From positions 1 to 64,000 of IMG/VR virus record IMGVR_UViG_3300001528_000174: a DNA stretch of 64,000 nt; one strand, written 5' to 3'. Below are positions 30,552 to 64,000 of the stretch, in pieces (within the stretch, counting starts at the first letter, position 1; each line of letters opens with the position of its first letter). This DNA comes from a virus (lineage: Duplodnaviria; Heunggongvirae; Uroviricota; Caudoviricetes). The notes under the pieces are model-generated. The model saw nothing but the letters and a program-made list of their open reading frames with translations, was not told where the DNA came from and did no database searches. The position numbers and the translations under genes are program-made.

Positions 30552-30732
30552 TATTGCTCCTAATCTTACTATTAAGCAATTAGTAGAAATTATGGATATA
30601 AGTAATAACTCTTATATAACTATTATTGATAGTGCTATAAATGGTAAAATAAATAATAGAATTATAGACAATAGAACTACATCAACTGGTCTTGGTGATA
30701 TAGTATATGGAACTACTAGTGTAACAAAATAA
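30520..30732 (+). CDS. Hypothetical small protein
   Basis: 70-aa track ORF with no TAG, ending TAA. Confidence 0.35.
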   Translation: MDLTKLKKISNIAPNLTIKQLVEIMDISNNSYITIIDSAINGKINNRIIDNRTTSTGLGDIVYGTTSVTK

Positions 30733-30743
30733 TAGATAATTAT

Positions 30744-31034
30744 TCTCTTATGGTGTAATGGTTAGCACAGAAGACTCTTAAAATAGGAGCTTTATATGGC
30801 GACATATATTGGAACTCTTCCCCTAATAAACCGAAGCCTCGAATATAGTAATATATTCTTTGGTGAGGGCTTACTAAATTAACTTAATGTTATAAATGGC
30901 GTAGAGACTATATAGGGAAGCATCTCTAGCAGATGAAGAAATAGTCCAGACTACAACATCCTATTAGGATGGCTTATGTAAAAGTAAGAGTAGTATGAAA
31001 TCTTTTAGTCTGGGTTCGAATCCTAGTGGGAGAA
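30744..31034 (+). tRNA. Split tRNA. Read as an amber-suppressor tRNA with anticodon CUA, interrupted in the anticodon loop by a ~219-nt intron.
   Basis: 5' half at 30744-30778: acceptor tctctta, D arm gtgtaatggttagcac, anticodon-stem strand gaaga, then ctct. 3' half at 30998-31034: aaa, then tcttt which pairs with gaaga, then T arm ctggg-ttcgaat-cctag, then tgggaga which pairs with tctctta (two G-U pairs), then discriminator a. Joining ctct|aaa gives the loop cuCUAaa. Confidence 0.4.
30779..30997 (+). other. Candidate self-splicing (group I-like) intron within the tRNA anticodon loop
   Basis: A ~219-nt insertion between loop positions 35 and 36. The 5' exon ends in U and the intron ends in G (tatg|aaa), as group I splicing requires. 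Internal P-elements have not been verified. Confidence 0.3.
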
Positions 31035-31035
31035 C

Positions 31036-31317
31036 ATGATAGCAGCAATTTATGAATTAAATGGTAAGGTTTTAAAAACAACTAATCTTACTAAGAAATT
31101 AAAACGATTAAAATCAGAACCTAAGATTCTATTTCAATTAGAGAATGGAACAGAAGCTGATTTAGACCAATGGATTAAAGACAACCAAAATATAAAATCT
31201 AATTCAGAAGAAGATATTGAAATTAAAAAGTATCATTATAGAAATCCAATTACAGGATATACAATAACTTCTATATATGATAATCTAGATGTTAATGGTT
31301 ATATAAAAATTGATTAA
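31036..31317 (+). CDS. Hypothetical protein
   Basis: 93-aa track ORF ending TAA. Confidence 0.4.
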   Translation: MIAAIYELNGKVLKTTNLTKKLKRLKSEPKILFQLENGTEADLDQWIKDNQNIKSNSEEDIEIKKYHYRNPITGYTITSIYDNLDVNGYIKID

Positions 31318-31556: not shown

Positions 31557-32300
31557 TTAATGTCCCAACTCCTACAAAAACTATCTAAAATGGTAAGAAC
31601 TAGTCTGAGGATAATACTCCCGATTATTCATATTGTTATATATATCTATAAAACCTCCAATAGTACCTGTACTTACTCCTATAGGAGTGCCATATTTATT
31701 CCACTAATACTAAATATTACCAACTTTTCTTTGTGGTATTACAGAAAAATCAGTTTGCCAAGTATGTGTACGACTTTCCTAAAGTTTTTTATTCCATTTT
31801 CTATACTAAGGATATTTATAATAAGCTTTAGTATAATCATACTGAGGCTTAGAAGAATAGACATAATTACTAATAAGAGGACTATATTCTGTAGTCTATT
31901 TTACTTTAGGTCTAAATCCACTATACTTTACATATTTACCCCATCTCATAGGAGCCGTATGAGGGTTAATAACTTGATATTCAGGGAATCCCATGCTTGT
32001 ATAATCTCTAAAATCAAATCTAGGATTTGAACCTATTTCTAGCATATTAATAGCTCCTGACTAAGATCCTGAAGAGTAACTTTTTAATCCGATAGTAGGC
32101 TACTACAAAGCACCAAAATATCTACTTTCATTATATGCCTCTCCATAATATCCATTTATATTTAATTTTTTAGCTAACTCTGTAGTCTATTTGGTACCTT
32201 CTTCTATAGATAAAGTGCCCTAAGCTACTTTATTATTAATATCATCAAATAACTAATAATTTGGGTCTGTTCTCTATAATCTATTTTTTATAGAATTTAC
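31557..32300 (-). CDS. TAG-recoded minus-strand gene I, a virion-type protein. Its start is unresolved and it may be fused to gene H by a frameshift.
   Basis: Open frame with many in-frame TAGs ending at TAA (plus-strand tta at 31557-31559): ...GFPEYQVINPHTAPMRWGKYVKYSGFRPKVK(TAG)TTEYSPLISNYVYSSKPQYDYTKAYYKYP.... The frame stays open for ~100 codons upstream of the first ATG and overlaps the end of gene H. Confidence 0.3.
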
Positions 32301-34388
32301 ATATTCCTAAAAAGAATTAATACCAACTCTATTATTTAATATTGCCGTAACATCTCCTCCTAAACCTCCTCTTGAAGAATTTAATAACTAATTACCTCCA
32401 ATTCCTGAAGCCTATCCATTAAATGGAGCTACTACGGAACGAAGAGCATTATTTTCTGTAGTAATATCCCATTTTGGAGTAAATTTAGAAAACCAGAATG
32501 CTGTTCTTATTCCCATATTATCTGCTATTAAATTCTAATTAACTATAGATTCTACAGCATCGTCACTATAGCTCTATGGAATACCCCATATAGTTCTAGC
32601 TTCTTGAATTTCCTAAGGAGTTAACTTTAGTCTAGCCCAATCATTAGTAACAGCATTAGTATTCATTTTCTAGATTCTATTAGTTAGCCAAGGACTACTA
32701 AACATTTGAGCTTGTCTACCTACTTGCTTAGATTTAAAACCATTATAGTTATCCATAGCTACCATTAAATCATATATTCTAGGATGTTTCTATAATTGGG
32801 TATATAATTCTTCAGCTTTTATAGGTAGAGCCTACTCTGTAGTATTAAATACTTGACCTTTCTATATAGCTGTGTTACCTAGTGATTCCCACTATTTCTA
32901 TAACTATTTATATTTCTATGGGTATAGTCTAGAATAATAATTATGAGCTAACTATCCTGTAGCATATCCTTTAGCATCTTCTCCAATAGTCTAAACATCG
33001 ATTACATGATTCCCATCAGAGTTAAATACTTTGTTATTACCTTCTAAGGACTATTTAAAACCATTAGATGGTCCATATTGAGATCCTTCTTTACCAATAC
33101 TTTTCTAAACTGCTCCTAATCTAGATTTAGTTGTTAATAACTCTAAGTCGTGAGGTACTCCGTTAATAATTCCAGAACCATATAATCTTGTAGAACCTCC
33201 AACAAGGGCACTTCCATTTAAAGTAGTTTCTAAGTCTTTTAAATATTGACCTAATTCAGGAGAGCCTGAAGTAACTTTACCAGTAGTATAATTTATCTTA
33301 GGGCGAATAGTCACTTCCTAACCATTTAAATTAATAGTTGCATTAGGGTCTTTACGTGTCTTTAAATTTGCAGCATAGTTAGCATGCCACTATTTTCCAC
33401 TTTCAGCAGTAGCTTCCCAATCAATTTTAGGATTATGAGTTCTAATATATTTTATATCTCTATATTTAGATAGAGCATTAGGATAAGTCGCCTCTAAATC
33501 AGACATTTTATTTTGTAGCTACTATTCATAAGCTTCTTTAGATGCAGATCTAGCCTCACCTATACTACTCCAAGTATATTTTTTATTAATTATATCAGAT
33601 AATCTTTTAGCGGGTTTCCAAGATTTATAAATTCTATTAATACCATAAGGAGCAAAAGTAAAAGCGGTATTTAATCCAGCACTTGCATAATTATTATCTT
33701 TTACATCGTGATGTATATCAGCAAGATTCTAACCTATAAACATAGCATTACCTATACCTCTAGCAGTAGCACTAGGTAACATACTGAGTACCATAGAAGT
33801 ACCAGTATTTATATCATGTATAGATTTTAATAATCTATAACCTAAGGGAGCATCCCACTAAGAATTATTTATAAGGTTTCCATTATTATCTTTTAAATAT
33901 TGCCCGGTTTCTAAATCTTTTAAAAATGGATCTTCAGGATTATAATCTATAGATCTATCAGAGTGTACAGTGGGAGATACTTTATAAGTACTTCTATACT
34001 CATTTTCAGCTTTATCCCTAGCTTTTTTAGCTAATACTTTACTCCCAGAACTTTTTGAAGACTCTAACTCAGCATCAGCACGTGCTTTATTAATATTTAG
34101 TTTATGTGCATTACTAAAACCCTAGTTTACTTCCTATTTATTAGTTCCTCCAGTATTTATTAATCTATTTTTTCTATACGTAGGGGCATAAAATGTTTTT
34201 ACTCTAGTACTATTATTCTATTCAATATGCTGAGGCACCACTTCTACCTAAGGTCTCTATAATTTCTAAGTACTCTTCTAAAGACCCTAATATAAAGATT
34301 TTACTGAAGCACCATTATCTTTGGAATTAAATAAATTTATTCCTCCCCAAGACTATTTATAATTATTATCTTTTATCTATACAGCCAT
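32297..34388 (-). CDS. TAG-recoded minus-strand gene H, a large (~696 aa) hypothetical virion protein
   Basis: Hand translation from the ATG (plus-strand cat at 34386-34388) through the track fragment 33105..33314 to TAA. It contains more than 30 in-frame TAGs and sequence such as ...NAMFIGQNLADIHHDVKDNNYASAGLNTAFTFAPYGINRIYKSW.... Confidence 0.4.
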
Positions 34389-34513
34389 GGTGTTCTTACT
34401 ATTACTGGAGTTCCTAATTTATCTAACATTTTTAATCCTAATATAGCTTTATTGTCTAAGTCAAATGAACGCCATTTCTTTTTATATTCATCAGGATTAA
34501 ACTTCCAAATATC

Positions 34514-35509
34514 TTATGCTCTATATACTTTTCTACCATTAGATGTTCCTTCCTAGATCAAATGTCCAGCAGCATCAACTCCTCTATCTCCAAAGTCTAA
34601 ATTATTATTAGCACTTTTCCAAGAAGTCTTATTAGTTACATTAGTTGCTTTCTATAAAGGTTTCTTAGTAAAGAAATCTAAAGTTTCAGTATTCTCATAT
34701 ACTGGAACATCTTTATAAGGATATACTTTTCTTATATAATTTTCATGTGGACCATAATCTACATTTACCTTTCTTACTCCATAGGAAGGGTTGATAGTTT
34801 TATTATATAAATAAGCATCAATCATATCATTACCTTTAGCTGCTTTCTAAAATCCAGTGTATGCTTCAGGAGCATAGGTATTATAACCTACACCTGTTGA
34901 TACGTAAGATAATACTCCAGCATGTTTCTTTGGAGTAGCCTTATGCATATTATATAATATATCTTCTATAGGATTTGCATCATTAGAAGTTCTCATAGCT
35001 ACTTCTATACTTCGTTTTAAAGGAGCTTTCATGGAATATCCAACCATAGGTATCATAAATAAATAATTACTAGCTTTAGTCGGATTTTTAGAAACATCAA
35101 TAGCTCCTTTAGTATAATCATAAACTGCTTGAGCCATAGGAGCTAAAGCATACCCTATACCTGAATTAGCTAATGCTTTTATTGGACTAGTATTATTATT
35201 CCAACTATCTACTTCTCTAGCATAAGCTCCTTTAATAGGATGGTTTCTATTCTTATTACTATAATTATATAATTTAGAATTGGTGTGTCCTCCCTATTGT
35301 ATAGTTCCTCTATTATCTACAAATATATCTTGTATTCCATTTACTGTTCTTATAGGAATTACTCTCTACTAAAACTTAGCTCCTATATAAGGGGATTTAA
35401 ATCTAGACTATCTTTGTCTAGAATAATATTCCATATCTATAGCTGCCTATTTATTTTGAGTATTATTATTTACTCCTTTATTTTGTTTACTTTCATCTAC
35501 CCTTGGCAT
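34514..35509 (-). CDS. TAG-recoded minus-strand gene G, a ~331-aa hypothetical protein
   Basis: Runs from ATG (MPRVDESKQNKG...) through the track fragment 34847..35137 in frame to TAA. It has about 10 in-frame TAGs. Confidence 0.4.
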
Positions 35510-35675
35510 ATTTTAAATTTTATTTTTCCAAATACTAGTTACACTATCTATACCTAATAATCCCATGCAGCAATAAAGCACAGTATCAACCATTTCAGGA
35601 GCTTGTATCTAATTAATAGAGCAATATATAAGTATAGCTAAACTAATTACCCATCCAAGTATCCCGCATACTCTT

Positions 35676-35861
35676 TTACTACTTATTCCTGTATGGGCTG
35701 TTATTAAGTTTATTAAGAATTTCTTCATTGCCCATTAAAAAGAATTTAAACAATAATCCTACAAAAGAATCAGGTGCTAAATTAGCCAATTCTTCTATAG
35801 GAATATCTGGATGAGTATCTACATATTCAGATACTTCCTCAATAGTTTTTAATTTATCCAT
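35676..35861 (-). CDS. Small hypothetical protein F (MDKLKTIEEVSEYVDTHPDIPIEELANLAPDSFVGLLFKFFLMGNEEILNKLNNSPYRNK)
   Basis: Part of track ORF 35679..35942, ending TAG then TAA. An overlapping alternative-frame small TM ORF (MKKFLINLITAHTGISSKRVCGILGWVISLAILIY...) at ~35505-35723 is also possible. Confidence 0.25.
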
Positions 35862-36079
35862 TATATAAAAATTAATATCGTGATAATTTGTAATATCTAT
35901 CCAATTAGTCCTCCTATCATAGTAGCAGCTATATCTAACCAATCAAATTTGTTTCCATATTGTTTATCCTTAAACTCCATTCCAAATGCACATCCTAATA
36001 CAGCCAGTATAGTAAATATTAATCCAATAGGAATAGCACATAATAAATGTTTTGGACGATTACTTTCTTTTAGCCACAT
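35860..36079 (-). CDS. Holin-like small membrane protein with two TM helices and 1 in-frame TAG
   Basis: Reads MWLKESNRPKHLLCAIPIGLIFTILAVLGCAFGMEF...WLDIAATMIGGLIG(TAG)ILQIITILIFI then TAA. Confidence 0.35.
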
Positions 36080-36155
36080 AGTTACTAACTCTTAATAAAT
36101 TTTTCCACAGCTATTGATCTCTTTCATTTACAAAATCAAAGAACTTTTGTAATTC

Positions 36156-36660
36156 ATTAATCTTCTCTGTCAGAATATACGTATCCATTATTATTTTTAT
36201 TAAGTTTTAAATTAAATCCAGAACCTCTAGTTTTAGTAACATATAAGGTAGGTAATATATTGGCTCCATCATAAACTATTTTAGTTCCTCCATTATTATA
36301 ATCATAATCAGAACCTAAATAATCCATGATATCATCTAATGACTTACCACTATTAGGATTTATATACTAATCTTTACTTAAATGATATATCTAATTATTA
36401 TTACTCCAAGATTTATTACCTAACCAAGGATAAGTAGGATGAGACTTAGTTTTATAAGTTCCTGATTTTCCTTCATCAGGAAAATGCCCAGTAGGAATAT
36501 AGTTATTCCAATTATGTGCTAAGATATTATTTAATTGTAACCAAGCAACAATAGGTTGGTCATTATAATATTTTCTATAGTCATACGAATCCTTAGATAA
36601 ATCTTGATTATTCCAAGCTCTAGATAATTGCTTACTCCAAGTATTATATAAAGATGGCAT
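36156..36660 (-). CDS. TAG-recoded gene D, a hypothetical protein
   Basis: Track fragment 36391..36660 (MPSLYNTWSKQLSRAWNNQ...) continues through TAG for ~75 more codons to TAA at ~36156. Confidence 0.35.
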
Positions 36661-37088
36661 TATGGTAAAATTGCGTTAATAATAGGATATTTAGCTTGTA
36701 TTCCATAGTATTTATCTATTAACCAACTAATAGGGGAAGTTACGTAAAAATCAGGTAACCTAGTATCCATTACCATTTTTCTAGCCTCCTAAGGATTTTT
36801 ATTCCAACCATTTTTATCTCTAAATGCTCTATAACTTGATTGAGCTTCTTCTCTATTATAATCTTTAATAAATTTACTATAAGCTAAAGCTCCTCTTGCT
36901 ATAGGTAATCCATAAGCCACTGCCTTAACATAAGCTTTTCCAACAGGGTCAGTATTACTTAAAGGCTTCTTTAAATCATTATCTCTTACTCTAGCATACT
37001 AAGGATATTTTTTATCTATGGCTTGCTACATCTATTGTGGAGTCCATACAGCTTTACCTTTTTGATATTTAGGAACCAGTTTAAGCAT
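36660..37088 (-). CDS. TAG-recoded gene C, a ~142-aa hypothetical protein
   Basis: Reads MLKLVPKYQKGKAVWTPQ(TAG)M(TAG)QAIDKKYP(TAG)YARVRDND... then TAA. The stop overlaps the ATG of D as taATG. Confidence 0.35.
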
Positions 37089-37734
37089 TTCTAAATTTAT
37101 TTATATATTTAACAATAGTAGTACCATTAGCATCAGAGCCTCCAACTTTTCCATATTTATAATAGTTTTTAGCCCATTTTGGATTTAGCCATGATGCTGC
37201 TATAGCTTCTCCAGTAGCTGCTATGCCATTACTTCTTAAGAATCTTGCATTATCATCATAAAACTATGATGCAGCTAATACTTGAGCATCAACATTGTTT
37301 TTAAACTATTCTCTAGATAAATTAGAATATTTACTTCTAGTACTATCTATAAACTAAAACCATCCAGCAGCTGAACTATTTTTTGATTGAGCCCTTGAAT
37401 TATATCCAGATTCCAAATGAGCTAGCTTCATTAAAGTAATTTTCTTATCACCAGTGATACCATATTTATCTAAGGTCTATTCAAGTATCTATTTATTACC
37501 TCCAGTATTATGATTTAATGTTAAAGATTCATTATTTGTTTCCATAGATGTTTTACTATTAGAGAAATATCCATCTAGATTTAAACCATTTGTATGAAAA
37601 TCTCCCGTATTTAATTCAGGAAACAGTTCATACTATTTAAGAGAGTAGTCTAAATCAATTCCTTTACTTTTTAATACTTCTGTAGCAGGTTTATCAGGAA
37701 TATCTAAAGCCTCATATTTAAAATATTCACTCAT
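37081..37734 (-). CDS. TAG-recoded gene B, a ~217-aa hypothetical protein
   Basis: Reads MSEYFKYEALDIPDKPATEVLKSKGIDLDYSLK(TAG)YELFPELNTGDFHTNG...AASWLNPKWAKNYYKYGKVGGSDANGTTIVKYINKFRNA then TAA. Its ATG overlaps the HNH stop as ATGA. Confidence 0.4.
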
Positions 37735-37976
37735 AATTTTATTAAGCCATTATGTATTTTAGCATGGCAATTCTTACAAACACAAACTGTTTGAGATAAT
37801 TCTTTAATAAATAAATCTGTAGGTATATGACTTACAGCTTGAGATATATTAAATAATTTTTCTCCAATGTGATGAAATTCTAAACAACATTTAGTACTCT
37901 CTCCACATATTATACATTGTGTTTTATGCTCATTTAAAATCTTTTTATTTTCTTTATAATACTTATTCTTTTTCAT
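37731..37976 (-). CDS. HNH homing-endonuclease-like protein
   Basis: 81 aa intact with no TAG. Motifs are C-x2-C (QCIICGE), EFHHI, and a C-x2-C-H-x3-H tail (CKNCHAKIH). Confidence 0.7.
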   Translation of the reverse strand: MKKNKYYKENKKILNEHKTQCIICGESTKCCLEFHHIGEKLFNISQAVSHIPTDLFIKELSQTVCVCKNCHAKIHNGLIKL

Positions 37977-50935: not shown

Positions 50936-52239
50936 TGGGACTTAAATATTAGGGTGACTCAACTCTTGGAGTTTCATTAACTATGCAAACTCCAAAACCT
51001 TTAGATGCAAGATTAGTTGTAGATACTAGAGCAGATTTATATACTATTCCTGCAAAATATGCTTATAATGGAATGCCTGTAGTATGTGTTGCAGATGGTA
51101 ATATTTATACGTTAATAGATAAAAATAACATAAAAGAAGCTGTTGGATGGAAGGCTTCTTACGAATCTATCTAGATAATAACTTGTACAGAGTAGGAATA
51201 TAAATAGTGGTAGAGCAATACTAACGAGAACTTTACTCCTAAAGATGATAGTTAGACTTGGTTACATCAAGATACTTATTATTACATATATGAAGGTAGC
51301 ATTGATGATAAGGGTCAATATTATGTTTCATATTCTTAGTTTGAAGACTTAACTAATTAGGTAAATAAGAAAGCTACTATATCATCTTTAAATAATTTAT
51401 CTGAAAAAACTGATAAAGCTCTACAAGATTTAGCCAATGTATATGCTACTCTTGATGATATAGATAGTTCTAATCCAGATTCTAAACTATCTAAAACTCT
51501 TGATAATTACTACACTAAAGAAAAAGTAGATGATACTTTTGTAACCAAAGAGAGCCTTAGAGGTGAAGGTATAGAAGGAGATGATTTTGTATTTGTAACA
51601 TAGACTACCTATAATAAAGACCAGCAGAATCTAGAAGAGTATAAGAAACAAACTTTAGAAGAATTATTCAATAAAGTTGATACTAACAGTGATGCAGAAT
51701 TAAAGTCTATATCTAATAATGGTAATAAATTAGTTATTAATAAATAGCTTACTATCAATGGGGATTCTTTAGCTTTAGATAAGAATGTCCCTAAAATAGT
51801 AGTGATGGATTAGCAGGAATACGATAACTTAGAAACTAAAGACCCTGACATTTATTATATGACTCATGGTACGGAATCGGATAATGGAGGTATGATTACT
51901 AGTGAGTTTTTAGAAACTAATTATTATAGTTAGGCATAGGTAATTGATTTATTTAATCAAGCTTTAAATAATTTATTTACTGTTTCTGGAAAGGTATTAG
52001 AATTAGGAACAAGTGCATTAAATATGATTTTGGTAGATAAACCTACTGATTAGATTTTTGAATATGATGGAGAAATTCATACTTTAAATAGTACTGATAA
52101 TTATAATGTCGTAGGTGAAGGAGGGTCAGAACCAGGAACTTATAGATTTAAAGTGGCTTTAAGAGCTGGTAAAAGATGGAAGGATAATACCAATACTCCG
52201 ATATTTATAACTTATATTATTAATTAGAAAACTGAATAA
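50935..52239 (+). CDS. TAG-recoded tail-fibre-associated protein of ~434 aa
   Basis: Includes track ORF 50983..51174 in frame. Ends TAA, overlapping the ATG of the DGR target as taATG. Confidence 0.4.
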
Positions 52240-54293
52240 TGCAAACATTAAGTCAATTAAAAATTGGTGATATTATATATGATTTAGCTGCTAAATTTGA
52301 TGCAAATGATAATAATATCCAAGATACTTATTCTACAAAAGAATATGTATCATAGAAAATATCTGAACTAGTAGGATCAGCACCTGAAACTTTAGATACT
52401 TTAAATGAATTAGCAGAAGCTTTAGGAAAAGATCCTAATTTTGCAACTACTATAGCCACTCAATTAGGAAATAAAGTAGATAAAGTAGAAGGTAAATAGT
52501 TATCTACAGAAGATTTTACAACTGCTTTGAAAGTATTATTGGAAAGTCTTCCAGAGCAAATAACTAACAAGTATAATAAACCTTCAGACGGTATTCCTAA
52601 AATAGATTTATCAAAAGAAGTTTAGAACTCTTTAAATAAAGCAGATAGTGCTATACAAGATATTTCTAGTAAATTAGATACTTCTATTTATGAAAGTGAT
52701 AAAGAGACTTTTGCTTTAAAAACAGAAATACCCACTACATTACCAGCTAGTGATGTTAGTACTTGGGCTAAAGCTTCTACGAAACCTGTATATACTGCTG
52801 AAGAAATTGGTTTAGATAAAGTGAATAATACCTCCGATATAGATAAACCAATATCAACAGCTACTTAGACAGCGTTAAATTTAAAAGTAGATAAAGTAGA
52901 AGGTAAATAGTTATCTACTAACGATTACTCTAATGAAGAAAAAGAAAAAGTACAGTAGTTAGGAGCAAGTGTACAATCATTAACTTAGAGTGTAGCTGAT
53001 ATTCAAGGTATAGAAGAATTATTATCTTACGGTATTAGTTTTGATTCTACAGTAGCTGACCCTAAATGTACTAGAGTCGGTAATCCTCTACTACATAAAT
53101 CTTTACCTATACAATCTTAGTACAAAGGTTGTATTGTTAAAGATGGAGTTTTACAATATTATTTGGACCCAAATGATTGGTCTAAAAAAGCGAACTCTGG
53201 AGTTATTGCTGGAAATAATGGCACAGAAGCAGGTTCAGGAGTAACTGTTGGTAACTCTTCTTAGGAGGATGCTGTTTTGGATGGTACAGATGGAGAAGTA
53301 TGTGTGGAAACTCCAGAATTTTATTTAAAATGTACTACTGTAGGGAATATTACTACTATTCGCGAATCATTACAATAGATAGATGCTGATTATAAGAAAA
53401 TCCCATCTATGTTTATAGACGCTTATAGAGGTACTGTAAATGACTCTAAATTACGCTCTGTAGTAAATACTAGTGCAGAATTTAGGGGAGGTGCTAATAA
53501 CTCAAGTTATGATTCTTATTTAGAATCCGACCCATTTAAATGTTTACTTGGAAAGCCTAGAACCAATATCACAAGAGCAAATTTCAGAACTTATGCTAGA
53601 AATATTGGTAAGGAATTATTATCTTATGATCAATACAAAGCAATATTCTATTGGAATTATATAATTGAGTATGCTAATTTTAATTCTTAGTTAGATTATA
53701 ATGCCAATTTAACTTCTGAAGGCTATCATCAAGGGGGTCTTGGAGCAGGACTTACGACATGGGATTGGTCAAGTTGGAGTACTTATAATGGTAATAATCC
53801 TATTACTCCATGTGGTTACGGTAATAATATTGGTAATTTTACAGGCATTAAAACTATCACAGCAGGCAATAAGACTTTCTCAATGCCTCGTTGGAGAGGA
53901 TTTGATAATCCTTTTGGTGATATTTGGACAAATGTTGATGGATGTGTTTTGAAGATTCCAAATATGTATATAATATTAAATAAAGATGATTATACAGACA
54001 ATTTAGATAATATTAAGTACAGTCGTATGTATTCTAACTTACCTACCTCAGAAGGTTATATAAAATCATTTTAGTTAGGTGAATATGCAGATATGGTTCC
54101 TAAAACTGTCGGCGGTAACGCTTCTATATATATGTGTGATTATTATTGGCAAAATTCTAACTTAAATACACTGCTGGTGGGGGGCAGCGTGGATAATGGT
54201 TCTAGTGCGGGTCTCACCTACTTCAACGGCGACCTTTCCGTCGGCAGCACTTACGCCACTGTCGGCGCGCGCGGCGTATGTTTGAAGAAGTAA
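52239..54293 (+). CDS. Tail fibre / receptor-binding protein of 684 aa that is the DGR target gene. It carries a C-terminal C-type-lectin-fold variable region and is TAG-recoded.
   Basis: The length 2055 nt equals 685 codons. Track fragments 53409.., 53883.. and 54093..54293 all fall in frame 0 and are linked by TAG codons. The N-terminus has a tail-fibre motif SAPETLDTLNELAEALGKDPNFATT and repeats KVDKVEGK(TAG)LSTEDFT / LSTNDYS. The C-terminus ...GGSVDNGSSAGLTYFNGDLSVGSTYATVGARGVCLKK is encoded by VR1. Confidence 0.7.
54180..54275 (+). repeat. DGR variable repeat VR1 (96 nt), inside the 3' end of the target gene
   Basis: Aligns ungapped with TR 54486-54581. Every one of the ~22 mismatches is at a TR adenine (A to G/T/C in VR), the signature of DGR adenine mutagenesis. 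Confidence 0.8.
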
Positions 54294-54485
54294 TATAATA
54301 CATAGATACAATATAAATTTTAAAATATAGTTGCTGAATATAGTTGTAATTCGGCGGCGTCAGATAAAATACACTGGGTAAAGCTACCAGGGGAAGCGTA
54401 AATTTTGATACTACAGAATCCCAAAGCCTTGGTATAAATAACTGATATAATAGATTTTCCGCTATAGAGAAAAACTAGGCTAGTA

Positions 54486-54581
54486 GGAGGCAACGTGAAT
54501 AATGGTTCTAATGCAGGTCTCACCAACTTCAACAGCAACAATTCCGTCAGCAACACTAACACCAATGTCAGCGCACGCAGC
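54486..54581 (+). repeat. DGR template repeat (TR)
   Basis: The sequence ggaggcaacgtgaataatggttctaatgcaggtctcaccaacttcaacagcaacaattccgtcagcaacactaacaccaatgtcagcgcacgcagc is rich in AAC codons. It is non-coding in its context and sits 165 bp upstream of the RT. Confidence 0.8.
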
Positions 54582-54746
54582 TTATTATTATAGTTAAAAA
54601 TATTATAGTCCGTTTTATGAGAATATTGTGCTATTTATACCATGCCTCTTGGCAAAAAATAACGTGGATTATAAGTCTTCATATCTGGCTTAGTAGTTAC
54701 GGCGAAAAATCAGAATTTATAATAATACTAATTTAAAATAAGAAAA

Positions 54747-56006
54747 ATGAAACGGAAAGGTGGCTTAATAAAAGAAATTAGCAGTTTTTCTAATGTAAGA
54801 TTAGCTGATAATTATGCAAGACAAAATACTAAAAGTAAACATGAAGTATATGTGCACGACAGTAACCAAGATGAAGAAAATATTATGTTATCAGAGAGTT
54901 TAAAAAATGGAACTTATAAAACCTCTAAATATAAAACTTTCTCTATTTTTGAACCTAAAGAAAGATTAATATTTAAATTACCTTATTATCCCGATAGGAT
55001 AGCACATCATTCCATAATGAATGTGCTAAAACCTATTTGGATAAAAACTTTTATACATCAAACTTATTCTAGTATAGAGGGAAGAGGTATTCATATGTTA
55101 AAACATGAATTATATAAAGTATTAAAAGAACACCCTGAAGAAACTACATATTGTTTAAAAATGGATGTGCATAAGTTTTACCCATCTTTAAATCATGAAA
55201 TATTAAAAACTTAGGTACGAAAGAAAATAAAAGATCCAAAAACATTAGTACTATTAGATGAAATAATAAATTCTACAGATTCTCTAACTCCTGGAGTTGG
55301 AGTTCCTATAGGAAATTATTTATCTCAATATTTTGCTAATGTATATTTATCTGAGTTTGACCATATTATGAAAGAAAAATGGAAATGTAAATTTTATTTT
55401 CGATATGCTGATGATATGGTAGTATTATCTAGTAGTAAGGAGTGGTTACATAATATTTTAGATAAAATAAAAAATTATTTTGAAGTTAACTTAAAACTCG
55501 AATTAAAACCTAATTATCAGATATTTCCAGTGGAATCTAGAGGTATAGATTTTGTTGGATATGTATTTAGACATGATTATGTACTACTTAGAAAATCAAT
55601 TAAAAAGAAACTTAATAAATTAGTATCTAAATATTAGAAAAAGAAAATTGATAAAGAGACTTTTAAAAAATCTTTAATGTCTTATAAAGGATGGCTATAG
55701 CATTGTGATGCTATACATTTAGCTAATTCTATATATAATAAAACTAAAATAAGAGTCTTTATATGGAATGGAAAAAAAGTAAATATATCTTCTTTCTATA
55801 ATAAATATATATGGGTAATTCGATTAACTAGACATAAGAAATTCTTTGAAATATGTTTTAAATATAAAGGTCAAAAATATATAACTAAATCTCAAAATTG
55901 GTTATTATATAACAAGATAAAATTTAGAAAACGACCATTTTATTTTAAATATGACAGAAATAAATTCAAACTCACCTCTCTAGAAGATTTAGAGATTGGG
56001 AAATAA
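54747..56006 (+). CDS. DGR reverse transcriptase of ~419 aa, itself containing 3 in-frame TAG codons
   Basis: Track fragments 54747..55214 and 55368..55637 share a frame. Motifs are FEPKERLIFKLPYYPDRIAHH (RT domain 1-2), GVPIGNYLSQYFANVYL, and the catalytic FRYADDMVVL (YxDD). A C-terminal extension SLMSYKGWL(TAG)HCD reaches TAA at 56004-56006. Confidence 0.85.
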
Positions 56007-56300
56007 TACTTATTATTATAATTATATAATTGAAGTAACTGAAATAATTACTTAGGAAAATGAAACTGTTCCTTTATATAGGTATATTCAGGTACATCTT
56101 AATGGGCAGCCTGAATATAAGCAAATAGTACAAGCAGTTTTAAGAGAATATATTAGTCAAAATGAAGAATTTGATTTAATAAATTCCTATAATAGTTATC
56201 AGAATAAATTGATAGATGATGAATCTGTTGTTACTAAGTATTTAAATTATTTAAAATTAGTTTAGGAAATTAAAACTAATATTAAAAAAGACATAAACAA

Positions 56301-56522
56301 ATGATATATCGAAACGGTAAATTAATTACAGAAGTTCATTAGAATCTTAAAGAATTTATCAATTAGGTATAGCAAATTGTTTAGAGAGATATTGGTGCAA
56401 TATATAAAGGTTCTTAGTTAGTCTGGGTAACTGTTTATAATGCTATTAAAAGTTGTTTTGGTAGTGGTACATGGTTACAAGATAAACCTTGGTTAGATAA
56501 TGACTTTTGGAAAAATAATTAA
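56301..56522 (+). CDS. Small hypothetical protein of ~73 aa with several in-frame TAGs
   Basis: Reads MIYRNGKLITEVH(TAG)NLKEFIN(TAG)V(TAG)QIV(TAG)RDIGAIYKGS(TAG)LVWVTVYNAIKSCFGSGTWLQDKPWLDNDFWKNN. Confidence 0.25.
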
Positions 56523-56572
56523 TACAAATGGCAATTTAGAATTTAAATAAACAAGATTAGCTAGATTTAACA

Positions 56573-59500
56573 ATGAATTGGGATGGTACTACAGGTTAGT
56601 AGGTAGAAGATTTAATATCAAGACATTTACCTGCTAATATGGAGTATGATGGTACTGACAATATACTTACTATTTCCAATAGCAATGGAGATACTATTGT
56701 CTCAGCAGAAGTAAGTGTTGCTCAACCTATATATACTCACTCAATTCAAATTGAAGGAATTTACTTTAATAATACTAGCTCTGAAAATTAGATAAATAAA
56801 GATTCAATACTTTGTAAACTAGGTACTAGGATATATCTTGGAGTTAGATATACCTACACTGCTACTAATCCGTTAACTAATAATACAACTCATGTCGGAA
56901 GTACCCAGAAGGTATTTATAAACATTGGAAATGGATATATTTAGTTAGAATCAGGTATTAAGTCCTCTCCTGATGTATAGTATATAGAAATTACAAACTT
57001 ATATACTAAAGTAACCTCTTCTAATGTATCTATACGTGTTACTGCTTCTGCTGATATAGAAGATAAAACAGTAACAGCTACAACTCCGAAGAAAGTATAG
57101 GTAATCAATCCTATATTAAGGTATTCAAATGATAGCTATATTGTTTCAGGTACAGCTAGTTTCCAAGTATAGGATGGGGGCGACGTATCTTATTTACTTT
57201 ACTATAAAATTAATGATTCAGTAGTTAAGAATCAAGATAACTTAACTTTAGCATTAACTGAATCTGGAGTAAATAAGATTGAAGCTTATGTAGAAGTAGC
57301 TAATAATGCTTCTATCAAGTCTTAGACTTTAAATGTGTAGGTAATAAATACTGGTGGTGTTACAACATTTGATAAAGTATTATATGCAATAAATGAAATT
57401 AGTGCTGATGTAAATAACTGGGAATTTAGTAAGCTATATAAATTATCTATATACTTCAAAGGGTAGTCTTAGGAGGAATCTACTATAATTACTAAACTTA
57501 CTGACACAGGTAACTCAGAATCATACCATTTAAATAAAACTAAGACAATAACTCTAACTGGAGATACTGGTGTAATTGAATAGGATATTAGTTACTTCTT
57601 AGGAATAACTGCATCCTAGAAAGATTTTAGTACAGTCTTAGTAGTAAATATAGATGGTGAAGATACAATTTCTTTTGATAATTCTACTATTATTAAAATC
57701 TTCAATGAAGGCTCATATAGTTATACTCCTAACTGTGCTTATTACTTTGATTAGTATTCTCCTGACAATTCTAATATTGTAACGAAAGATGTTATTGCCA
57801 AAACGATTTCTCCTGATGGATTAATTACTGATGATACTTTAACGGTATTTAGATTGTCTGCTGGAAATTACCCTAATAATATTATTAATTTAGATTTATC
57901 TAATTAGCTAACTACATAGGGATTTACTTTTGAATTAGATTTTAAATCCTATAATATTAGTGATGAATCTAAACCTTTATTAAAGTTAGGTAGATTCATA
58001 TTATATCCTACAGAACTTAATTGGCAGTATGGTAATGTAGATACTTCTTAGGTAGATACTACTGCTAAGAGTTCTATATTTTATGGAGATACTAGAACAC
58101 ATATTTTAATTGAAGTTGTTCCTAATTTTAAAATACCTAAGAGAGAGTTCCCAAAAGATACCATTTCATTGGTAGATAAGACTATAAATTTAGTAAGAGT
58201 ATTTATTAATGGTTGTATCGCCCGTGAGTATAAATATGATTACTTACAAGATTTTTAGTATAATGGATTTAACCTAGAAATTAATCCTGAATCTGCTGAC
58301 TTTGATATTTATGGAATTAGGGTATATAACAAAGCTTTAACATTAAAAGAAATACAAGATAATTATGTATCTACAATGTCTTCGGTCACTGAAAAATCTA
58401 AATTTTAGTAGTTAAATGATTTAGTAGCTACAGATTCCAATAATGATACTTACATATCTTATAATAAAGTTAAGTAGCTTTATAATACTTTAGTATATAT
58501 AATTCCTAATAGACCGAAAGAATTAACTAGATATGAATACCCTCATTAGTTCTCTTTGAAGAAAGGAGAAGTTCTAGAAGGTTGTACCGTATTTATTAAT
58601 TATGTAAATAGTATAGCAACTGATAGTTCTCATATCTTAACGGATGCTTAGATAAATCGTTGTTCTGGTAGATTTATTAATGCTAATGTAAGTGGTCAAG
58701 GAACTTCTGCAATGAAGTATTACTGGTATAATATTCAAATGAAGAAACCTAAGTTTACTTCGTAGGGATGTTATAATGAAGAACTTGATGATTATGTAGA
58801 ACCTACAGATGAAAATCCAAATAACTACTAGTACAATAGTAAATACTACTATATGCCAGAGGATGAAAATTGTACTATTGGTATAAATAAGTCATGTGGT
58901 AAGTTTAATTATGCTTCCTCTATGCAGTCTCATAAGATAGGAGCTGTTAAGGCTTTTCATGATTTGTGGAATGCTTGTGTTGATAAATCCGATTTTACAG
59001 AAGATGAAATAAAAGGAAGAAAAGCTTGTCTCGAAGATGTATTTATAGCATTCTATGTTAATTCAGATTTAGAGGATGTGTCTAACTATAAGTTATCTGA
59101 CTTAGCTTAGTTAGATGATTCTAAAATAATGTTTGCAGGATTCTAGACTTGGGGTTCAGCTAAGGGGGATAAGAATACATTTGGCTATTCCGATGAAACT
59201 CCTGGATATATCTTATTAGAAGGTGCTGAAAATAACGGTGAACTATGTAACTGGTTAGCTCCTTGGAGTCCTAATGTAGTGGAATTAAGTGGAGAAACTT
59301 GGAAAACCAAATAGTTAGAGGTAAGCTCTGATGGTTCTACAAAGTATTCTTTATCTGATTCATTTGATGTAGACTTTGGATTAAATGATGCTGATGAAAC
59401 AGGCAGCACAATGTCTACTGAAGGATAGAAAACTTTAAATAAATTTATAGAAGCATATAATTTTGCTTATATGCATACTATTAATTTATTGCCTTATAAA

Positions 59501-62500
59501 GAGACTTATTCATTGAATGATTCTCGTAATAGTCTTGACCCTAATAAGAAATATTATATTACAAGTATTAACTATTAGGATAACACATATTTTAAAGGCT
59601 CTCAATGGGATGTATTTAGATATGATACATATTCTAAATTATGGGTTCCTGCTGGTTTACCTGTTTTAAATGAAAATGGTACTTAGAAACTATCCTCTGT
59701 TAGAAGTGCTTATAATACTGATGTCTATGAGTATGAAACATTTAACTTAAAGACATTCCATCAATAGTTAGGAACTTCTGGTACTGAGAATATTAACACT
59801 TATATATCTGATTTAAAAACCGATTTTAAAAATAACTTTGGTAAATACTATCATGTAGATGATATAATTTATCATCAAGCTTATATTAGATTATTTGCGG
59901 GTACTGATAATAGAGCTAAGAATACTTACTTTAAATTATTTAATAAAGACTGTAAGATTTAGTTGCTACAAGATGACCTTGACACCATTTTAGCTACTGA
60001 TAACCGAGGTCTTTAGAATAAACCTTATTTCTTATTAGAACCTTCTCTAGAATCTGATAAAACATATCAATCAATGTGGGGCGGTGCTAGTGCATTCTTT
60101 GAGTTAATAGATATAGCCTATAAAGAAGAAATAGATGCTATGTTACTAAAAATGTTAACTCAAATGAAATTTACAGATGGCAGTAACACTTCTCTTGATT
60201 CTTGGATGACTAAGTATTTCTATTATGTACAAAATTATTATCCAGCTGTAACATTTAATTATGTAGCAAGATTAGCTTATGAAGCAGCATAGTTATTCTA
60301 TGACAATCGTTCAATAACTGGAAAAAACTGGACTAATAATGGACAAGACCCACTATCACAAGAACATGGAAGTTGTTTACCAAGTGAAATTGCTTTTATG
60401 CGGAAGCGTTTGACTATGTTTATTAGTTAGGCACGATTAGCACAATTTGGTAGAGAAGGTGTAGGTATACCACTTAAAGTATCGGAAAATTCTTCGGAGG
60501 ATGCTCAACATTATGATGTTAATATTACTCCATATTAGTATTTATACTTGGGCTATTTAGTTGGTAGTGTAAGTAACTTATATACTAATAAGAGAATTGC
60601 TGCTGGAGAAACTTTAAAAGTAACTGTTGATATGCCAAATGGTACACCATCGTACTATGTAACAGGAGATGAATATATTTCTAAGTTTGATAATTTTAGT
60701 CAGGTATTATTTAATAAAGGAACTTATTCACTTACTACTCCAAAATTATTAGAGTTTTCTGCCAATACAGGTACAGATGAATTACCTTTATTCTAGCCAC
60801 CATATTTAACCCTTGATTGCAAGGTTTTAGAGAAGTTAGATTTAACTAATGTACGTTCTTTAACTACTATAAATCTTGACTCAGACCATACTCCTAAATT
60901 AAAGGAAGTTATTTTAACAGGAACTAATATATCTAATGTTACTTTACCTATTGGTAGTAGATTAACTAAGATACATTATCCAGCTGCTTTAACTAATTTA
61001 GTTATTTCTAATAATGAAGGACTTGAAGAAGTTAAGTTTGAAGGATTAAATAATTTAGAGACTGTTGATATTAACTGTGCTAAAGTTGGACAATTTGATA
61101 TTACAAACTTCTGTGAATAGTTAATATCTTGTCCTAGTCTTAAGTCTGTTACTTTGAGAAATCTAAATAATAAGATTTCACTAGAAGCATTAGAGAAACT
61201 TATATTATTGCAAGCAAAACTTACAGGTACATTAACTATTGCTAATTCAGGTAACTAGTTAGAAGGTATTAGTTATACTGATAAGATTAATTTAGTTAAT
61301 TTATATGGAAATATAGACTCTGATTCTAATAGTTTATACATTAAATATAAAGAGACTATTGCTTATAGTATTTCTTGTGAAACTGAAATATCTATCTATG
61401 GTCAAGGATATTCAGGAAATCCATTTGGTTTAAGCCTTGATGGTAACAATATAGCTTTAATCACAGAAGGTGGTAAAGTAATTCCCGATATTACTTATAG
61501 ATTTAATACAGACGTATCTGATGTAGCTACTATAAATAACAGAACAGGTGTTATTACTTTGAAACAAGCATCTTCTTCTAAAACTACTACAGCTACAATC
61601 ACTGTAAAATTAAAGAATGGAAATACTTTAACTTCTAAGACTATTAATATTTATTTTGCTTGGAAAGCTCCAGAAATAGGAAACTTTGTATATGCAGATG
61701 GTACTTATTCAAGTGCATATATGACCAGTAAGACATTAATGGGATTGATATTTGCTATAGATAAGACTACGGATAACTCAGGTACTGCTTATATCGTGGG
61801 TAAAGAATATCTAGACCCTCAATATGTAGGTTATTCAAATGAAGCAAATCAAGAGGCTTCAGATGCTAGAAAAGACTTATATAATGTTAAATTCTGGCTA
61901 AATAATCAAGTTTCAGGTTTAGGAGATACATATTACAATAGTAAAAATGTAACAAGTAACATGGACTCTGATGCTAGTTAGGCTATTACATTAACTTCAT
62001 TTAGTTAGAAGAGTCCTTCTACATTTACAGGTAAGGCTGATACTAAAGCGTATGTGGATAATGTAAACAATACCTTACTGCCTCTTATAGTAAAAACGTA
62101 CCCATCCTTAATTAATGCTTCAGGTGATACTTATAGTATAACTTCTAGATAGAACTTAGATGCATTATTAAATAGTATACCTAATATAGCTAGTTAGAGT
62201 TTAGAGTAGATGTAGTGTTTACTATATCCATACTTCTATGAGACTTACTTATATGAACCTACAGTGACTGATTCTGAAAGGAATACAGAAGTTTTTTAGA
62301 CATATTTTAGTAAAGGTAACTGGTATGTCCCATCTTATTAGGAGCTAGCTACTTTGATTTATTATAGAGGCTATAGTGCAGCTGGAGATAATTTCTCTAC
62401 TGGCGATATTCCATTGAAATCTAACATATCAGATTCTATAACCAAAGGTTCAGGCGATTTAAAGAATCCTATTTTCTCTACTGCTTATAAAAATGCAGGT

Positions 62501-62761
62501 AATTATATGCCAGCAGTATGGAATACCTTAGCAGATTCTAATAACTTATGTACTAATGTAGATATTAGTAGTCATAACTATACTTATTAGGAGATAAGCA
62601 ATTATTCTTCTAGTGGTTATTTATATAGTTATCAATGGGTGCCGGGAACTAATGACGGAAATAACATTGGAATGGGTACTTCAGCAGCTGCGTATAATGG
62701 TTGGAGATTATTAAAACATAGACCTTTACCATGTGTACAATTTAAATATCAATAGAAATAA
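56573..62761 (+). CDS. Giant tail / virion protein of ~2062 aa with ~60 in-frame TAG codons and a leucine-rich-repeat region
   Basis: Track fragments 58853.., 60074.., 60548.., 61559.. and 62354.. are all in frame 2. TAG positions 57323, 58256 and 61118 were verified in frame. There is an LRR-like stretch near 60.8-61.2 kb (LDLTNVRSLTTINLDSDHTPKLKEVILTGTNISNVTLPIGSRLTKIHYPAALTNLVISNNEGLEEVKFEGLNNLETVDINCAKVGQFDITNF). Ends TAA at 62759-62761. Confidence 0.55.
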
Positions 62762-63266
62762 TGGAATAGTTAAATATTAATATAGTCAAAAATTCTTCAT
62801 ATACATTAGATGAAATATTTAATATATATAAAGAAGCATTTCCAACTAATGAATAGTGGGCTGAAATACTTAAAATGAGAGAAGGAGTTTTAAATTTCTT
62901 CTCTCTAAAAGATATTTTTAAAAAAGCCATAAGTCATTATGATAAGTCTATCTATGTTAATTCTTTCTATTACTAGAATAAATAGTACTGGTTAGACAAA
63001 GATACTAGAATTGGACTTTTTAGATTGATAGATAGTGGGGCTACATAGATTACTCTTTAGTTAAATGACAACTATTTGATTATTAACTCTGACAAGTTAA
63101 AAGAATTTCTTAACTAGTTAGAAATATATGCTGGTAAATGTTTTGCAATTACTGCCGAGCATTTACAAAATATAAAACAATTAGGTACTACTGAAGAATT
63201 ACTTAACTATGACTACACTGCTAAATATCCAAATAAGGTTATTTTAAATGAAAATTAGTGTTAAAA
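62761..63266 (+). CDS. TAG-recoded hypothetical protein of ~167 aa
   Basis: Reads ME(TAG)LNINIVKNSSYTLDEIFNIYKEAFPTNE(TAG)WAEILKMREGV.... The ATG overlaps the upstream stop as taATG. Confidence 0.35.
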
Positions 63267-63843
63267 AAGATATTGGGCTAGGAGTCAAAGATTCTTAGCC
63301 CAATTCTGTTTCTATACGTGTTCAGCTACCGAAAGAACCCTCAACTATTAAACCTAAAATAACTATTCCGGTAATAAAAAAAGAAGAAAAAATATTGGAT
63401 AAAGAAATTATTCAATTACCTAAAATAGTTGAACCTATTAAACAAACTTACGGAATAATTCATAATGAGCAGCCTGTTATTAAATAGGAACCTTCTAAAG
63501 AGCTAAATAAAGACTCTATCCTGGATAAAGTAGAAACAGGATTTGGTGATGAAAATACATTACATAAAGAGTGTCCAAAACCTAAATTTCATTAGCACCT
63601 ATGTAAGGAGAATTTTTTTAGTGAGTTTAAAACAGAAATAGAAAAGTAGTTAGCTAGAGATAATCTAGGAGTATATAGTAAACTTCAAATAGACTAGTTT
63701 TTAAAAGATTTAACTAATATAGATACTTCATCATTTATTACCAAAGATGACTTTGAAGCAGCTATATAGGATTTAGATTTTGTTAAATCTTCTTTAAAAG
63801 CTAATATAGATTATAATATACCAGAAAATTTATTTAAATTATG
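63248..63843 (+). CDS. TAG-recoded hypothetical protein of ~198 aa
   Basis: Reads MKISVKKDIGLGVKDS(TAG)PNSVSIRVQLPKEPSTIKPKITIPVIKKEEKILDKEII... and ends TGA. Confidence 0.35.
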
Positions 63844-64000
63844 AGTACTCAAATAAAGAGATTATATCAAAATAGTAAAGAGTTTGTACCTATAACGTTA
63901 GCAGAAGCAGTAGTAGTTAATACTACTAATATACCAGGTTTGCAGTCTTTAGGAATTACTACTTTAGATAAAGTATTAAGAACTACACTGGGAATAGTAG
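63841..64000 (+). CDS. Hypothetical protein, 5' partial since it runs off the window end
   Basis: Reads MSTQIKRLYQNSKEFVPITLAEAVVVNTTNIPGLQSLGITTLDKVLRTTLGIV.... Confidence 0.3.
   Translation, partial: MSTQIKRLYQNSKEFVPITLAEAVVVNTTNIPGLQSLGITTLDKVLRTTLGIV

Follow-up and report, generated by a model that had tools for sequence, protein, structure and literature searches.

A stretch of 64,000 nucleotides (nt) from a virus of the Caudoviricetes (positions 1 to 64,000 of IMG/VR record IMGVR_UViG_3300001528_000174; hereafter the window) carries at 30744-31034 what I read, with a probability of roughly 0.85, as a phage amber suppressor transfer RNA (tRNA) gene of the glutamine (Gln) type, with anticodon CUA, in which a group I intron separates nucleotides 35 and 36 of the anticodon, the intron being a selfish, mobile passenger. 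The identity of the gene, its exact exon boundaries, the ribozyme architecture of the insert, its family membership, its presence/absence polymorphism and the use of TAG as a sense codon are established here.

A suppressor gene split within its anticodon

The gene and the open reading frame (ORF) that follows it are laid out as follows.

30744..30778, + strand: 5' exon of tRNA(CUA), comprising the 5' acceptor strand, the D arm, the 5' anticodon stem and C32 U33 C34 U35 (sequence, ARAGORN)
30779..30997, + strand: 219-nt ORF-less group I intron of the tRNA-Leu(UAA) (IC3-like) family (RF00028, nhmmer, covariation, intronless orthologues)
30998..31034, + strand: 3' exon of tRNA(CUA), comprising A36 A37 A38, the 3' anticodon stem, a 4-nt variable loop, the T arm, the 3' acceptor strand and the discriminator A (sequence, ARAGORN, intronless alleles)
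31036..31317, + strand: ORF of 93 amino acids, of unassigned function and free of TAG, used as locus anchor

Both tRNA halves can be read directly from the sequence. When they are joined at CUCU|AAA, ARAGORN recognizes in the spliced sequence a canonical 72-nt cloverleaf with the loop CUCUAAA and the anticodon CUA; its acceptor stem is UCUCUUA/UGGGAGA, its D stem GUGU/GCAC, its anticodon stem GAAGA/UCUUU and its T arm CUGGG-UUCGAAU-CCUAG, with A as discriminator, and CCA is not encoded by the 3' exon. The features expected under RF00005 are all present, namely a 7-base-pair acceptor, a D arm, a 5-base-pair anticodon stem, a 7-nt loop with U33 and a purine at 37, and a T arm with GTTCGAATC. Positions 34-36, on which amber suppression would depend, are CUA at the junction predicted from a U at -1 and a terminal G (omega-G) in the intron, and the uninterrupted alleles described below share this loop. 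The T stem, CUGGG/CCUAG here and CAGGG/CCUUG in relatives, differs by a compensated pair, and because this change sets the window copy apart from its relatives the suppressor tRNA is taken to be under selection.

The boundaries are fixed by orthologous loci, for which the 93-amino-acid ORF, starting 2 nt after the tRNA, served as the anchor. Searching with it returned 11 IMG/VR loci, 10 of them with 94-97% amino-acid identity in the anchor protein, and together with the window and GenBank MT835539 these make 13 orthologous loci with three alleles at one site: six are intronless, three have the short intron (one of these in a more distant relative) and four have an intron with an HNH endonuclease. 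The six intronless contigs (L046, L047, L052-L055) contain an uninterrupted 72-nt gene, ...GAAGACTCTAAATCTTT..., that equals exon 1 plus exon 2 and is matched by the Rfam tRNA model at 63.6 bits (E 4e-14, model positions 1-71); the 5' exon of the window agrees with the 5' portion of these alleles save for one acceptor-stem base. Because no other placement of the boundaries yields the uninterrupted sequence, the intron is 30779-30997, preceded by U and ending in G. An earlier note, made from the letters of this DNA, had proposed a single split tRNA gene with these coordinates and a 219-nt intron, and had derived the CUCU|AAA junction, and with it the CUA anticodon, from the U(-1)/omega-G rule. 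ARAGORN and the six uninterrupted orthologues bear out the first proposal, and the intronless orthologues match the predicted junction exactly.

Presence and absence among close relatives, as expected of a mobile intron, is thus seen directly, and IMG/VR dataset 3300045988 holds both intron-bearing and intronless alleles. The short intron recurs as a close kin of 223 nt in L051 (same contig as L019), and the window and L019 introns differ in the alignment solely in loops or joining regions. In L056 (same contig as L018), where the anchor protein has 51% identity, a short intron sits in a different CUA tRNA. The third allele, in L048-L050 and in GenBank MT835539 (L003), has at the identical position an intron of 1003 nt that encodes a 272-amino-acid HNH endonuclease ORF (Pfam HNH; PHROG 10822, E 2e-42). 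This intron is putatively group I: Rfam gave no match on the entire 1003 nt of the MT835539 copy, and its group I model reached merely 13.6 bits (E 0.35) on the 3' 286 nt. An nhmmer profile of the short-intron family found no similarity to the HNH intron and no second intron copy in the window. The 219-nt intron has no ORF within it, and so no homing endonuclease. A few kilobases (kb) from the split suppressor of a related contig, a RAGATH-1 hammerhead ribozyme occurs at L018 1110-1213 (- strand; Rfam 73.3 bits, gathering score 56.3).

Split as it is by a group I intron, the suppressor escapes both tRNA finders in bacterial mode and Rfam at the gathering threshold. Default ARAGORN reported 13 tRNAs in the window, all on the minus strand and from 8 to 23.5 kb, and none at 30744-31034; nor did Rfam at the gathering threshold make a call at the locus. 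Run in the intron-aware mode that the earlier note had recommended, ARAGORN did find one split tRNA at 30744-31035, with a junction put arbitrarily, without regard to group I chemistry, and the name 'His(atg)'; it likewise misnames the homologues (Ser, Leu, Arg and others).

Architecture and family of the intron

By its architecture the insert is a group I ribozyme, and self-splicing is predicted. Its elements, all on the + strand, are the following.

30775..30789: P1, exon CUCU and intron UA (30775-30780) with the guide UAGGAG (30784-30789), wobble U30778.G30786 at the 5' splice site (direct reading, Rfam alignment)
30793..30808: P2 hairpin UAUAUG-GCGA-CAUAUA with a GNRA loop, both-side changes in 6 of 6 pairs
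30817..30822: P3 5' strand CUUCCC, partner 30915-30920, compensatory changes in 5 of 6 pairs
30828..30872: P4-P5 domain, a weak P4 (30828-30833/30867-30872) and P5 (30837-30838/30862-30863), the latter 100% paired
30841-30858: P5a hairpin GAAUAUA-GUAA-UAUAUUC, 6 of 7 pairs covarying and 93% of alignment cells paired
30880..30892: P6 hairpin UAAC-UUAAU-GUUA, 4 of 4 pairs covarying
30906..30911: P7 5' strand GACUAU inside the conserved GUAGAGACUAUA, partner 30941-30946, invariant in 19 of 19, 100% paired and Rfam-aligned
30915..30920: P3 3' strand GGGAAG, same P3 helix
30921..30935: P8 hairpin CAUCU-CUAGC-AGAUG, 4 of 5 pairs covarying
30936..30946: J8/7 and P7 3' strand, AAGAAAUAGUC, conserved core fitting the Rfam consensus AAGAUAUAGUC
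30950..30994: 3' domain, P9.0 (ACUAC 30950-30954/GUAGU 30990-30994, 98% of cells paired) enclosing P9 and P9a
30957-30971: P9, 5 of 5 pairs covarying
30973-30988: P9a with the conserved loop UGUAAAAG, 4 of 4 pairs covarying
30997: intron-terminal G (omega-G), boundary set by the intronless alleles

This hand-drawn P1-P9 structure was tested on an alignment of 19 family members. Standard pairs occupy 85.6% of the cells. Shifting the 3' partners by one to three columns lowers this figure to 37-43%, the number of pairs with both-side changes from 44 of 62 to 15-25, and the covariation score from 0.369 to 0.06-0.13; in 500 shuffles the observed values were never attained. The catalytic core is present as P3-P8 and the P7 pseudoknot, with strands AGAGACUA and AAGAnAUAGUC, and each of the 14 CUA-type introns has a guide, GGAG or GGAC, that places a G across from U(-1). 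In the alignment to the Rfam group I model RF00028, the conserved strands AGAGACUAUA and GAAGAAAUAGUCC have high posterior probability; within the family L025 comes out best against that model, at 49.1 bits (E 3.6e-11). The family profile finds the window intron at E 2e-55 and spans CUA-type and Leu-type introns nearly full length at E 1e-28 to 1e-60, scores that are partly circular because the profile includes the aligned members. The proposal in the earlier note that the insert obeys group I rules thus finds support in the covariation over 19 relatives and in the RF00028 alignment; of the P1 to P9 pairings that it had suggested looking for, P1, P2, P3 and P5-P9 are well supported and P4 is weak.

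P4 is canonical in the relatives L025 and L026. An alternative register, AAGCC/GGCUU, is perfect in the window but gives an A.C mismatch in most relatives and leaves no J4/5, and the register homologous to that of L025 was kept. The terminal G is found in 17 of the 19 aligned members and is replaced by A in L007 (~781-996) and L016 (~8927-9144), both of the CUA type with GUAGUACA|AAC at the 3' junction; these may be inactive copies or have an unusual 3' splice site.

The J8/7-P7 segment is part of a 19-nt core word, GAAATAGTCCAGACTACAA, that traces the family. It occurs in 39 IMG/VR stretches, 18 of them in CUA tRNAs, and in 84 stretches of bacterial genome assemblies, nearly all Bacteroidales and including one complete chromosome. 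Genome stretches in which both exons were legible have the intron in tRNA-Leu(UAA), at the classical position CUU|AAAA, and there it measures ~210-440 nt or ~680-755 nt. The viral members occupy tRNA-Leu-like genes, several other tRNAs, and CUA tRNAs at CUCU|AAA or CUCU|AAC. Among the carriers of the CUA type are the window lineage, four Lak megaphage contigs, GenBank Lak-B1, B3, B6 and B9, five cr115_1-like Suoliviridae contigs and several others. At all 13 CUA-type loci that were examined, counting TAG as a sense codon makes long-ORF coverage jump, for example from 0.10 to 0.81 and from 0.54 to 0.90. The RefSeq record of cr115_1 has nothing annotated at the site of the split gene, just upstream of TerL, and the records of Lak-B1, B3, B6 and B9 are without annotation in the collection searched.

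From these comparisons the window intron can be assigned to the tRNA-Leu(UAA) family common in Bacteroidales, in which retargeting has replaced ACUU (read by the guide GAGU) with CUCU (read by GGAG). This change of guide shifts the insertion by one nucleotide in the 3' direction.

Several members deserve separate mention. The tRNA(CUA) that the same intron splits at CUCU|AAA in L039 (~8278-8501, - strand) is of class II: its variable arm is long, like that of Ser, Leu or Tyr tRNAs, which hints that some phages may read TAG as an amino acid other than Gln. Many assemblies of gut Bacteroidales have the 19-nt core in a tRNA-Leu(UAA) gene (L058-L137); four stretches from contigs assigned to archaeal or Clostridium bins (L060, L100, L107 and L121) have differing exons, for example of tRNA-Lys, and may be mis-binned phage DNA. 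Lak-B2 (L043 3048-3120) has an uninterrupted CUA tRNA of the 'UGGGGAUUAGUAUAG...' type, as opposed to the split 'UGCCCUAUGGUGUAA...' type of Lak-B1 (L001 ~1490-1810), B3, B6 and B9, at a similar genome position. An intronless counterpart of the Lak-B1 gene was sought in the other Lak-B genomes, but their CUA gene, that of Lak-B2 for one, is a different tRNA and hence provides no test of the Lak junction.

TAG recoding and the identity of the suppressor

Under the standard code long ORFs end at ~29.8 kb; with TAG as sense, long ORFs fill 31.5-64 kb.

31557..63844, no strand assigned: TAG-recoded late region needing a UAG-decoding tRNA (long ORFs exist only with TAG as sense)
42875-45307: TerL, 13 TAG codons, in the late region
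45551-47722: portal, 37 TAG codons, in the late region

The earlier note had placed the tRNA gene exactly where recoding begins. This is largely right: long TAG-sense ORFs start at 31557, and no TAG read-through is needed by the minus-strand genes to 29841 or by the + strand ORFs 30520-30732 and 31036-31317. The exception is a candidate + strand ORF upstream of the tRNA, 30243-30551, which as called has three in-frame TAGs, although its true start may be downstream of two of them; because of these TAGs the boundary of recoding is not perfectly sharp.

TAG most likely stands for Gln (genetic code 15), because the codon exchanges, the features of the tRNA and the annotation of its relatives agree. 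Where TAG codons differ between the window and MT835539, 46 of 60 and 69 of 93 of the partner codons are CAA or CAG (74-77%), though CAA is two substitutions away from TAG. At 10 of the 13 TAG positions of TerL, 90%-identical homologues have Q, with the proviso that these homologues may themselves be code-15 translations. The suppressor shares its D arm (UAUGGUGUAAUGGU-AGCAC), U1-A72 and A73 with phage tRNA-Gln(UUG), and its closest uninterrupted relatives are annotated as tRNA-Gln with anticodon CUA. Descent from either a Gln or a Lys tRNA had been suggested in the earlier note; the first of these holds up, whereas Lys is disfavoured despite an overall identity of 72% to tRNA-Lys versus 67% to tRNA-Gln.

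TerL is only distantly related to the Crassvirales terminases (25-28% identity), and close relatives of the phage are found on contigs of 160-185 kb. By TerL and these relatives the phage would fit the large 'zeta' crAss-like group. In MT835539.1 (29742-34313, L057) TerL matches that of the window in three pieces spread over 4.5 kb rather than 2.4 kb, and therefore contains at least one insertion, an intron or intein, that is missing from the window. Within the TAG-recoded block, a reverse transcriptase at 54747-56006 (+ strand; PHROG 1423, E 1e-113) is probably part of a diversity-generating retroelement. An ORF of 943 codons at 31557-34388 (- strand) contains 48 in-frame TAGs and is matched neither in PHROG nor, at the nucleotide level, in the close relative MT835539; it is either a variable late gene or a doubtful call.

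Other elements lie in the tRNA region of the window. On the minus strand at 22268-22389, 22720-22803 and 23234-23314, Rfam identifies tRNAs (39.7-46.5 bits) that default ARAGORN missed; they have ~8-50 extra nucleotides in the anticodon region, which may be short inserts like the 'enigmatic' introns of Lak phages. Between these odd tRNAs, at ~22530-22560 (- strand), is a T-arm-like AAAGGTTCGAATCCTTT with acceptor-like flanks and no complete tRNA around it. A transfer-messenger RNA-like element at 16249-16632 (- strand) matches the full RF00023 model at 54 bits (gathering score 47) and was not called by ARAGORN.

Role of the intron and comparison with known systems

The tRNA gene lies, with small ORFs, within a short rightward unit that starts from the divergent intergenic region at ~29.85-30.24 kb. 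A PHROG search of the flanking small ORFs gave no match, and a sigma-70 promoter scan found eight sites versus 14.7 in shuffles, fewer than expected by chance, so no promoter was assigned. In the course of events proposed here, for which I infer self-splicing activity, Gln charging and time of expression, the gene would be transcribed rightward from this region along with the small standard-code ORFs, and the intron would fold and excise itself via two transesterifications. The ligated exons would form tRNA(CUA), to which the host would add CCA and which host GlnRS would most likely charge with Gln. The mature tRNA would then decode UAG in the late genes, where it stands in frame several hundred times. 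The intron would be tolerated since splicing restores the tRNA, and regulation would not need it. It is best viewed as a selfish, mobile passenger, which is the most economical reading; an obligatory regulatory role is disfavoured because sister alleles are intronless, because an unrelated endonuclease intron occupies the same site and because the family resides in bacterial tRNA-Leu genes.

Several points weigh against this reading. The 471-base stretch round the locus matches RF00028 at full length but weakly, at 17 bits (E 0.058); the Rfam search suggested in the earlier note thus returned the expected family at a score far under the gathering score of 50. P4 is paired in just 62% of the cells in the window subfamily, with a conserved A.C plus a G.G or A.G mismatch. 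Splicing of the window intron is itself a prediction from sequence, and only codon exchanges and tRNA similarity speak for Gln charging. The window shows 64 kb of a genome of ~160-185 kb, and an intact second suppressor gene is possible elsewhere. The present mobility of the 219-nt intron, which has no endonuclease gene, is uncertain. Finally, the minimum-free-energy fold of the precursor is indistinct from shuffles (z = -1.1), a comparison that is uninformative for an AT-rich pseudoknotted ribozyme.

Compatible with the passenger reading, and possible if rather unlikely, is a part for the intron in competition and immunity. By occupying a homing-endonuclease site the intron would shield its own gene, and the endonuclease would cut the suppressor of intronless co-infecting rivals, a situation that resembles marker exclusion in T-even phages. 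The finding of two introns at exactly one site, unrelated by nhmmer and one of them with an HNH endonuclease, would suit such a contest, as would the coexistence of intron-bearing and intronless alleles in dataset 3300045988; the window intron, however, has no endonuclease gene, and cleavage of this site by the HNH protein is an assumption.

The earlier note had raised an intron-gated suppressor as a second, RNA-level control over recoding. On this view slow or conditional splicing would delay the mature suppressor and so serve as a timer for the switch to TAG=Gln. The position of the gene at the early/late boundary, with TAG-free ORFs on both sides, is what one might expect of such a gate, and several TAG-recoded phage lineages that are unrelated to one another have this intron in their CUA suppressor genes. 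This recurrence is equally explained by the shared CUCU|AAA target, however, and the intron has no domain beyond the minimal group I core and belongs to a family that also resides in ordinary bacterial tRNA-Leu genes. Furthermore, 6 of the 13 orthologous loci in near-identical phages are intronless and 4 of the 13 have an unrelated intron; therefore recoding works without the short intron. The gate is thus unsupported, and I consider it improbable.

I give very little credence to the idea that the gene is a decaying pseudogene, whose intron no longer splices and whose task falls to a tRNA outside the window or to the host. The low Rfam score, the weak P4, the existence of copies that may be inactive (L007 and L016, with A for the terminal G) and the remainder of the genome, which is out of view, would agree with decay. 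In the window, however, every core helix is intact and so are the U.G wobble and terminal G, the differences from the L019 intron spare the helices, and the exons form a perfect cloverleaf with a compensated T-stem change. Moreover, ARAGORN and Rfam revealed no other CUA tRNA within the 64 kb despite 17 tRNA hits.

Next to no room is left for a protein-spliced bulge-helix-bulge intron, or an unrelated insert, given that the P2-P9 architecture covaries, that the core of P7 and J8/7 is invariant, that the U.G wobble and terminal G are present and that the intron is homologous to introns at the classical tRNA-Leu(UAA) site; and bacteria are not known to have a splicing endonuclease for bulge-helix-bulge introns. 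Such a reading would at least account for the silence of bacterial tRNA finders and of Rfam at the gathering threshold, and it has a parallel in the 'enigmatic' short tRNA inserts of Lak phages, whose type is unspecified in the accessible text of Devoto 2019 (PMC6784885).

A split suppressor of this kind may help explain why many TAG-recoded gut phages seem to be without a suppressor tRNA. A suppressor is detectable in just 35-40% of recoded phage genomes, and the rest has been ascribed to 'noncanonical' or 'extremely divergent' tRNAs (Borges 2021 preprint; Yutin 2021, PMC7886860; 2025 zeta crAss paper). Part of this 'missing suppressor' gap thereby acquires a concrete and checkable reason, and both code assignment and gene calling would gain from an intron-aware search of recoded phage genomes. 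The locus further shows a classical tRNA-Leu intron family of Bacteroidales that has acquired a new target tRNA, at a new site, in viruses infecting these bacteria, and it marks the suppressor gene as a hot spot for mobile introns. Wider claims are doubtful: that split suppressors are general and overlooked in stop-recoded phages and account for a sizeable share of the ~60% without a found suppressor, and that CUCU|AAA is a battleground of introns and endonucleases or that splicing times the code switch. Were they true, competing introns and endonucleases would attack or protect a gene essential for a rival's late-gene translation.

The closest known system is the tRNA-Leu(UAA) group I intron (IC3) of cyanobacteria, plastids and other bacteria ('Leu.3Ug'; Williams 2020, doi 10.1101/2020.01.27.920355), which resembles the window intron in its anticodon-loop site, the U(-1).G in P1, the terminal G and a compact P1-P9; the exact 19-nt core is common to the window and to the CUU|AAAA introns of 70-odd Bacteroidales assemblies. 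The window differs in its host gene, a phage amber suppressor, in the insertion at 35/36 rather than 34/35, in the guide GGAG rather than GAGU and in a degenerate P4. The introns of Azoarcus tRNA-Ile(CAU), Agrobacterium tRNA-Arg(CCU) and cyanobacterial tRNA-fMet are likewise small, mostly ORF-less, self-splicing and placed in the anticodon loop, with the anticodon stem intact beside P1, but they occupy other tRNAs and positions, are chromosomal, and show no detected sequence relationship. Bacterial tRNA group I introns have been sorted into 21 tRNA/site types (2020 preprint), and a 2026 jumbo-phage survey treats tRNA introns in general terms only.

The uninterrupted CUA suppressors of crAss-like and Lak phages would give the same mature product, with the same presumed role, UAG=Gln in late genes (Yutin 2021, PMC7886860; Devoto 2019, PMC6784885; Borges 2021 preprint). 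The window tRNA is 83-94% identical to the uninterrupted genes of cr7_1, MT836720 and the sister contigs; the loop is CUCUAAA in crAss-like cr7_1 and in Lak-B2 and CUCUAAC in MT836720. Unlike these, the window gene is split and is missed by tRNAscan-type searches. Lak phages, also TAG-recoded, have inserts in tRNA genes too: the accessible text of Devoto 2019 (PMC6784885) reports 'enigmatic' introns in tRNA-Phe, Gly, Thr and Tyr together with uninterrupted Sup(CTA) genes, and the accessible part of its supplement gives a ~93-nt insert in tRNA-Tyr(GTA), mapped with a eukaryotic model and with no intron type stated. The 245-nt group I intron found here in the CUA gene of Lak-B1, B3, B6 and B9 is not among the introns listed in that text.

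Finally, phage protein genes too harbour group I introns that carry homing endonucleases (T4 td, nrdB and sunY; many in zeta crAss-like phages). These are similarly mobile and similarly present or absent among close relatives, and the alternative allele at the present site has an HNH endonuclease of its own; the target here, however, is a tRNA gene that underlies a genetic-code switch and not a protein gene. A literature search, with most subscription journals outside its reach, returned no published description of an intron-split suppressor tRNA. What is new, then, is that an intron of the tRNA-Leu family has been retargeted, at a new position, to the amber suppressor gene of a phage, that it is polymorphic among close relatives and that it shares its site with a second intron.

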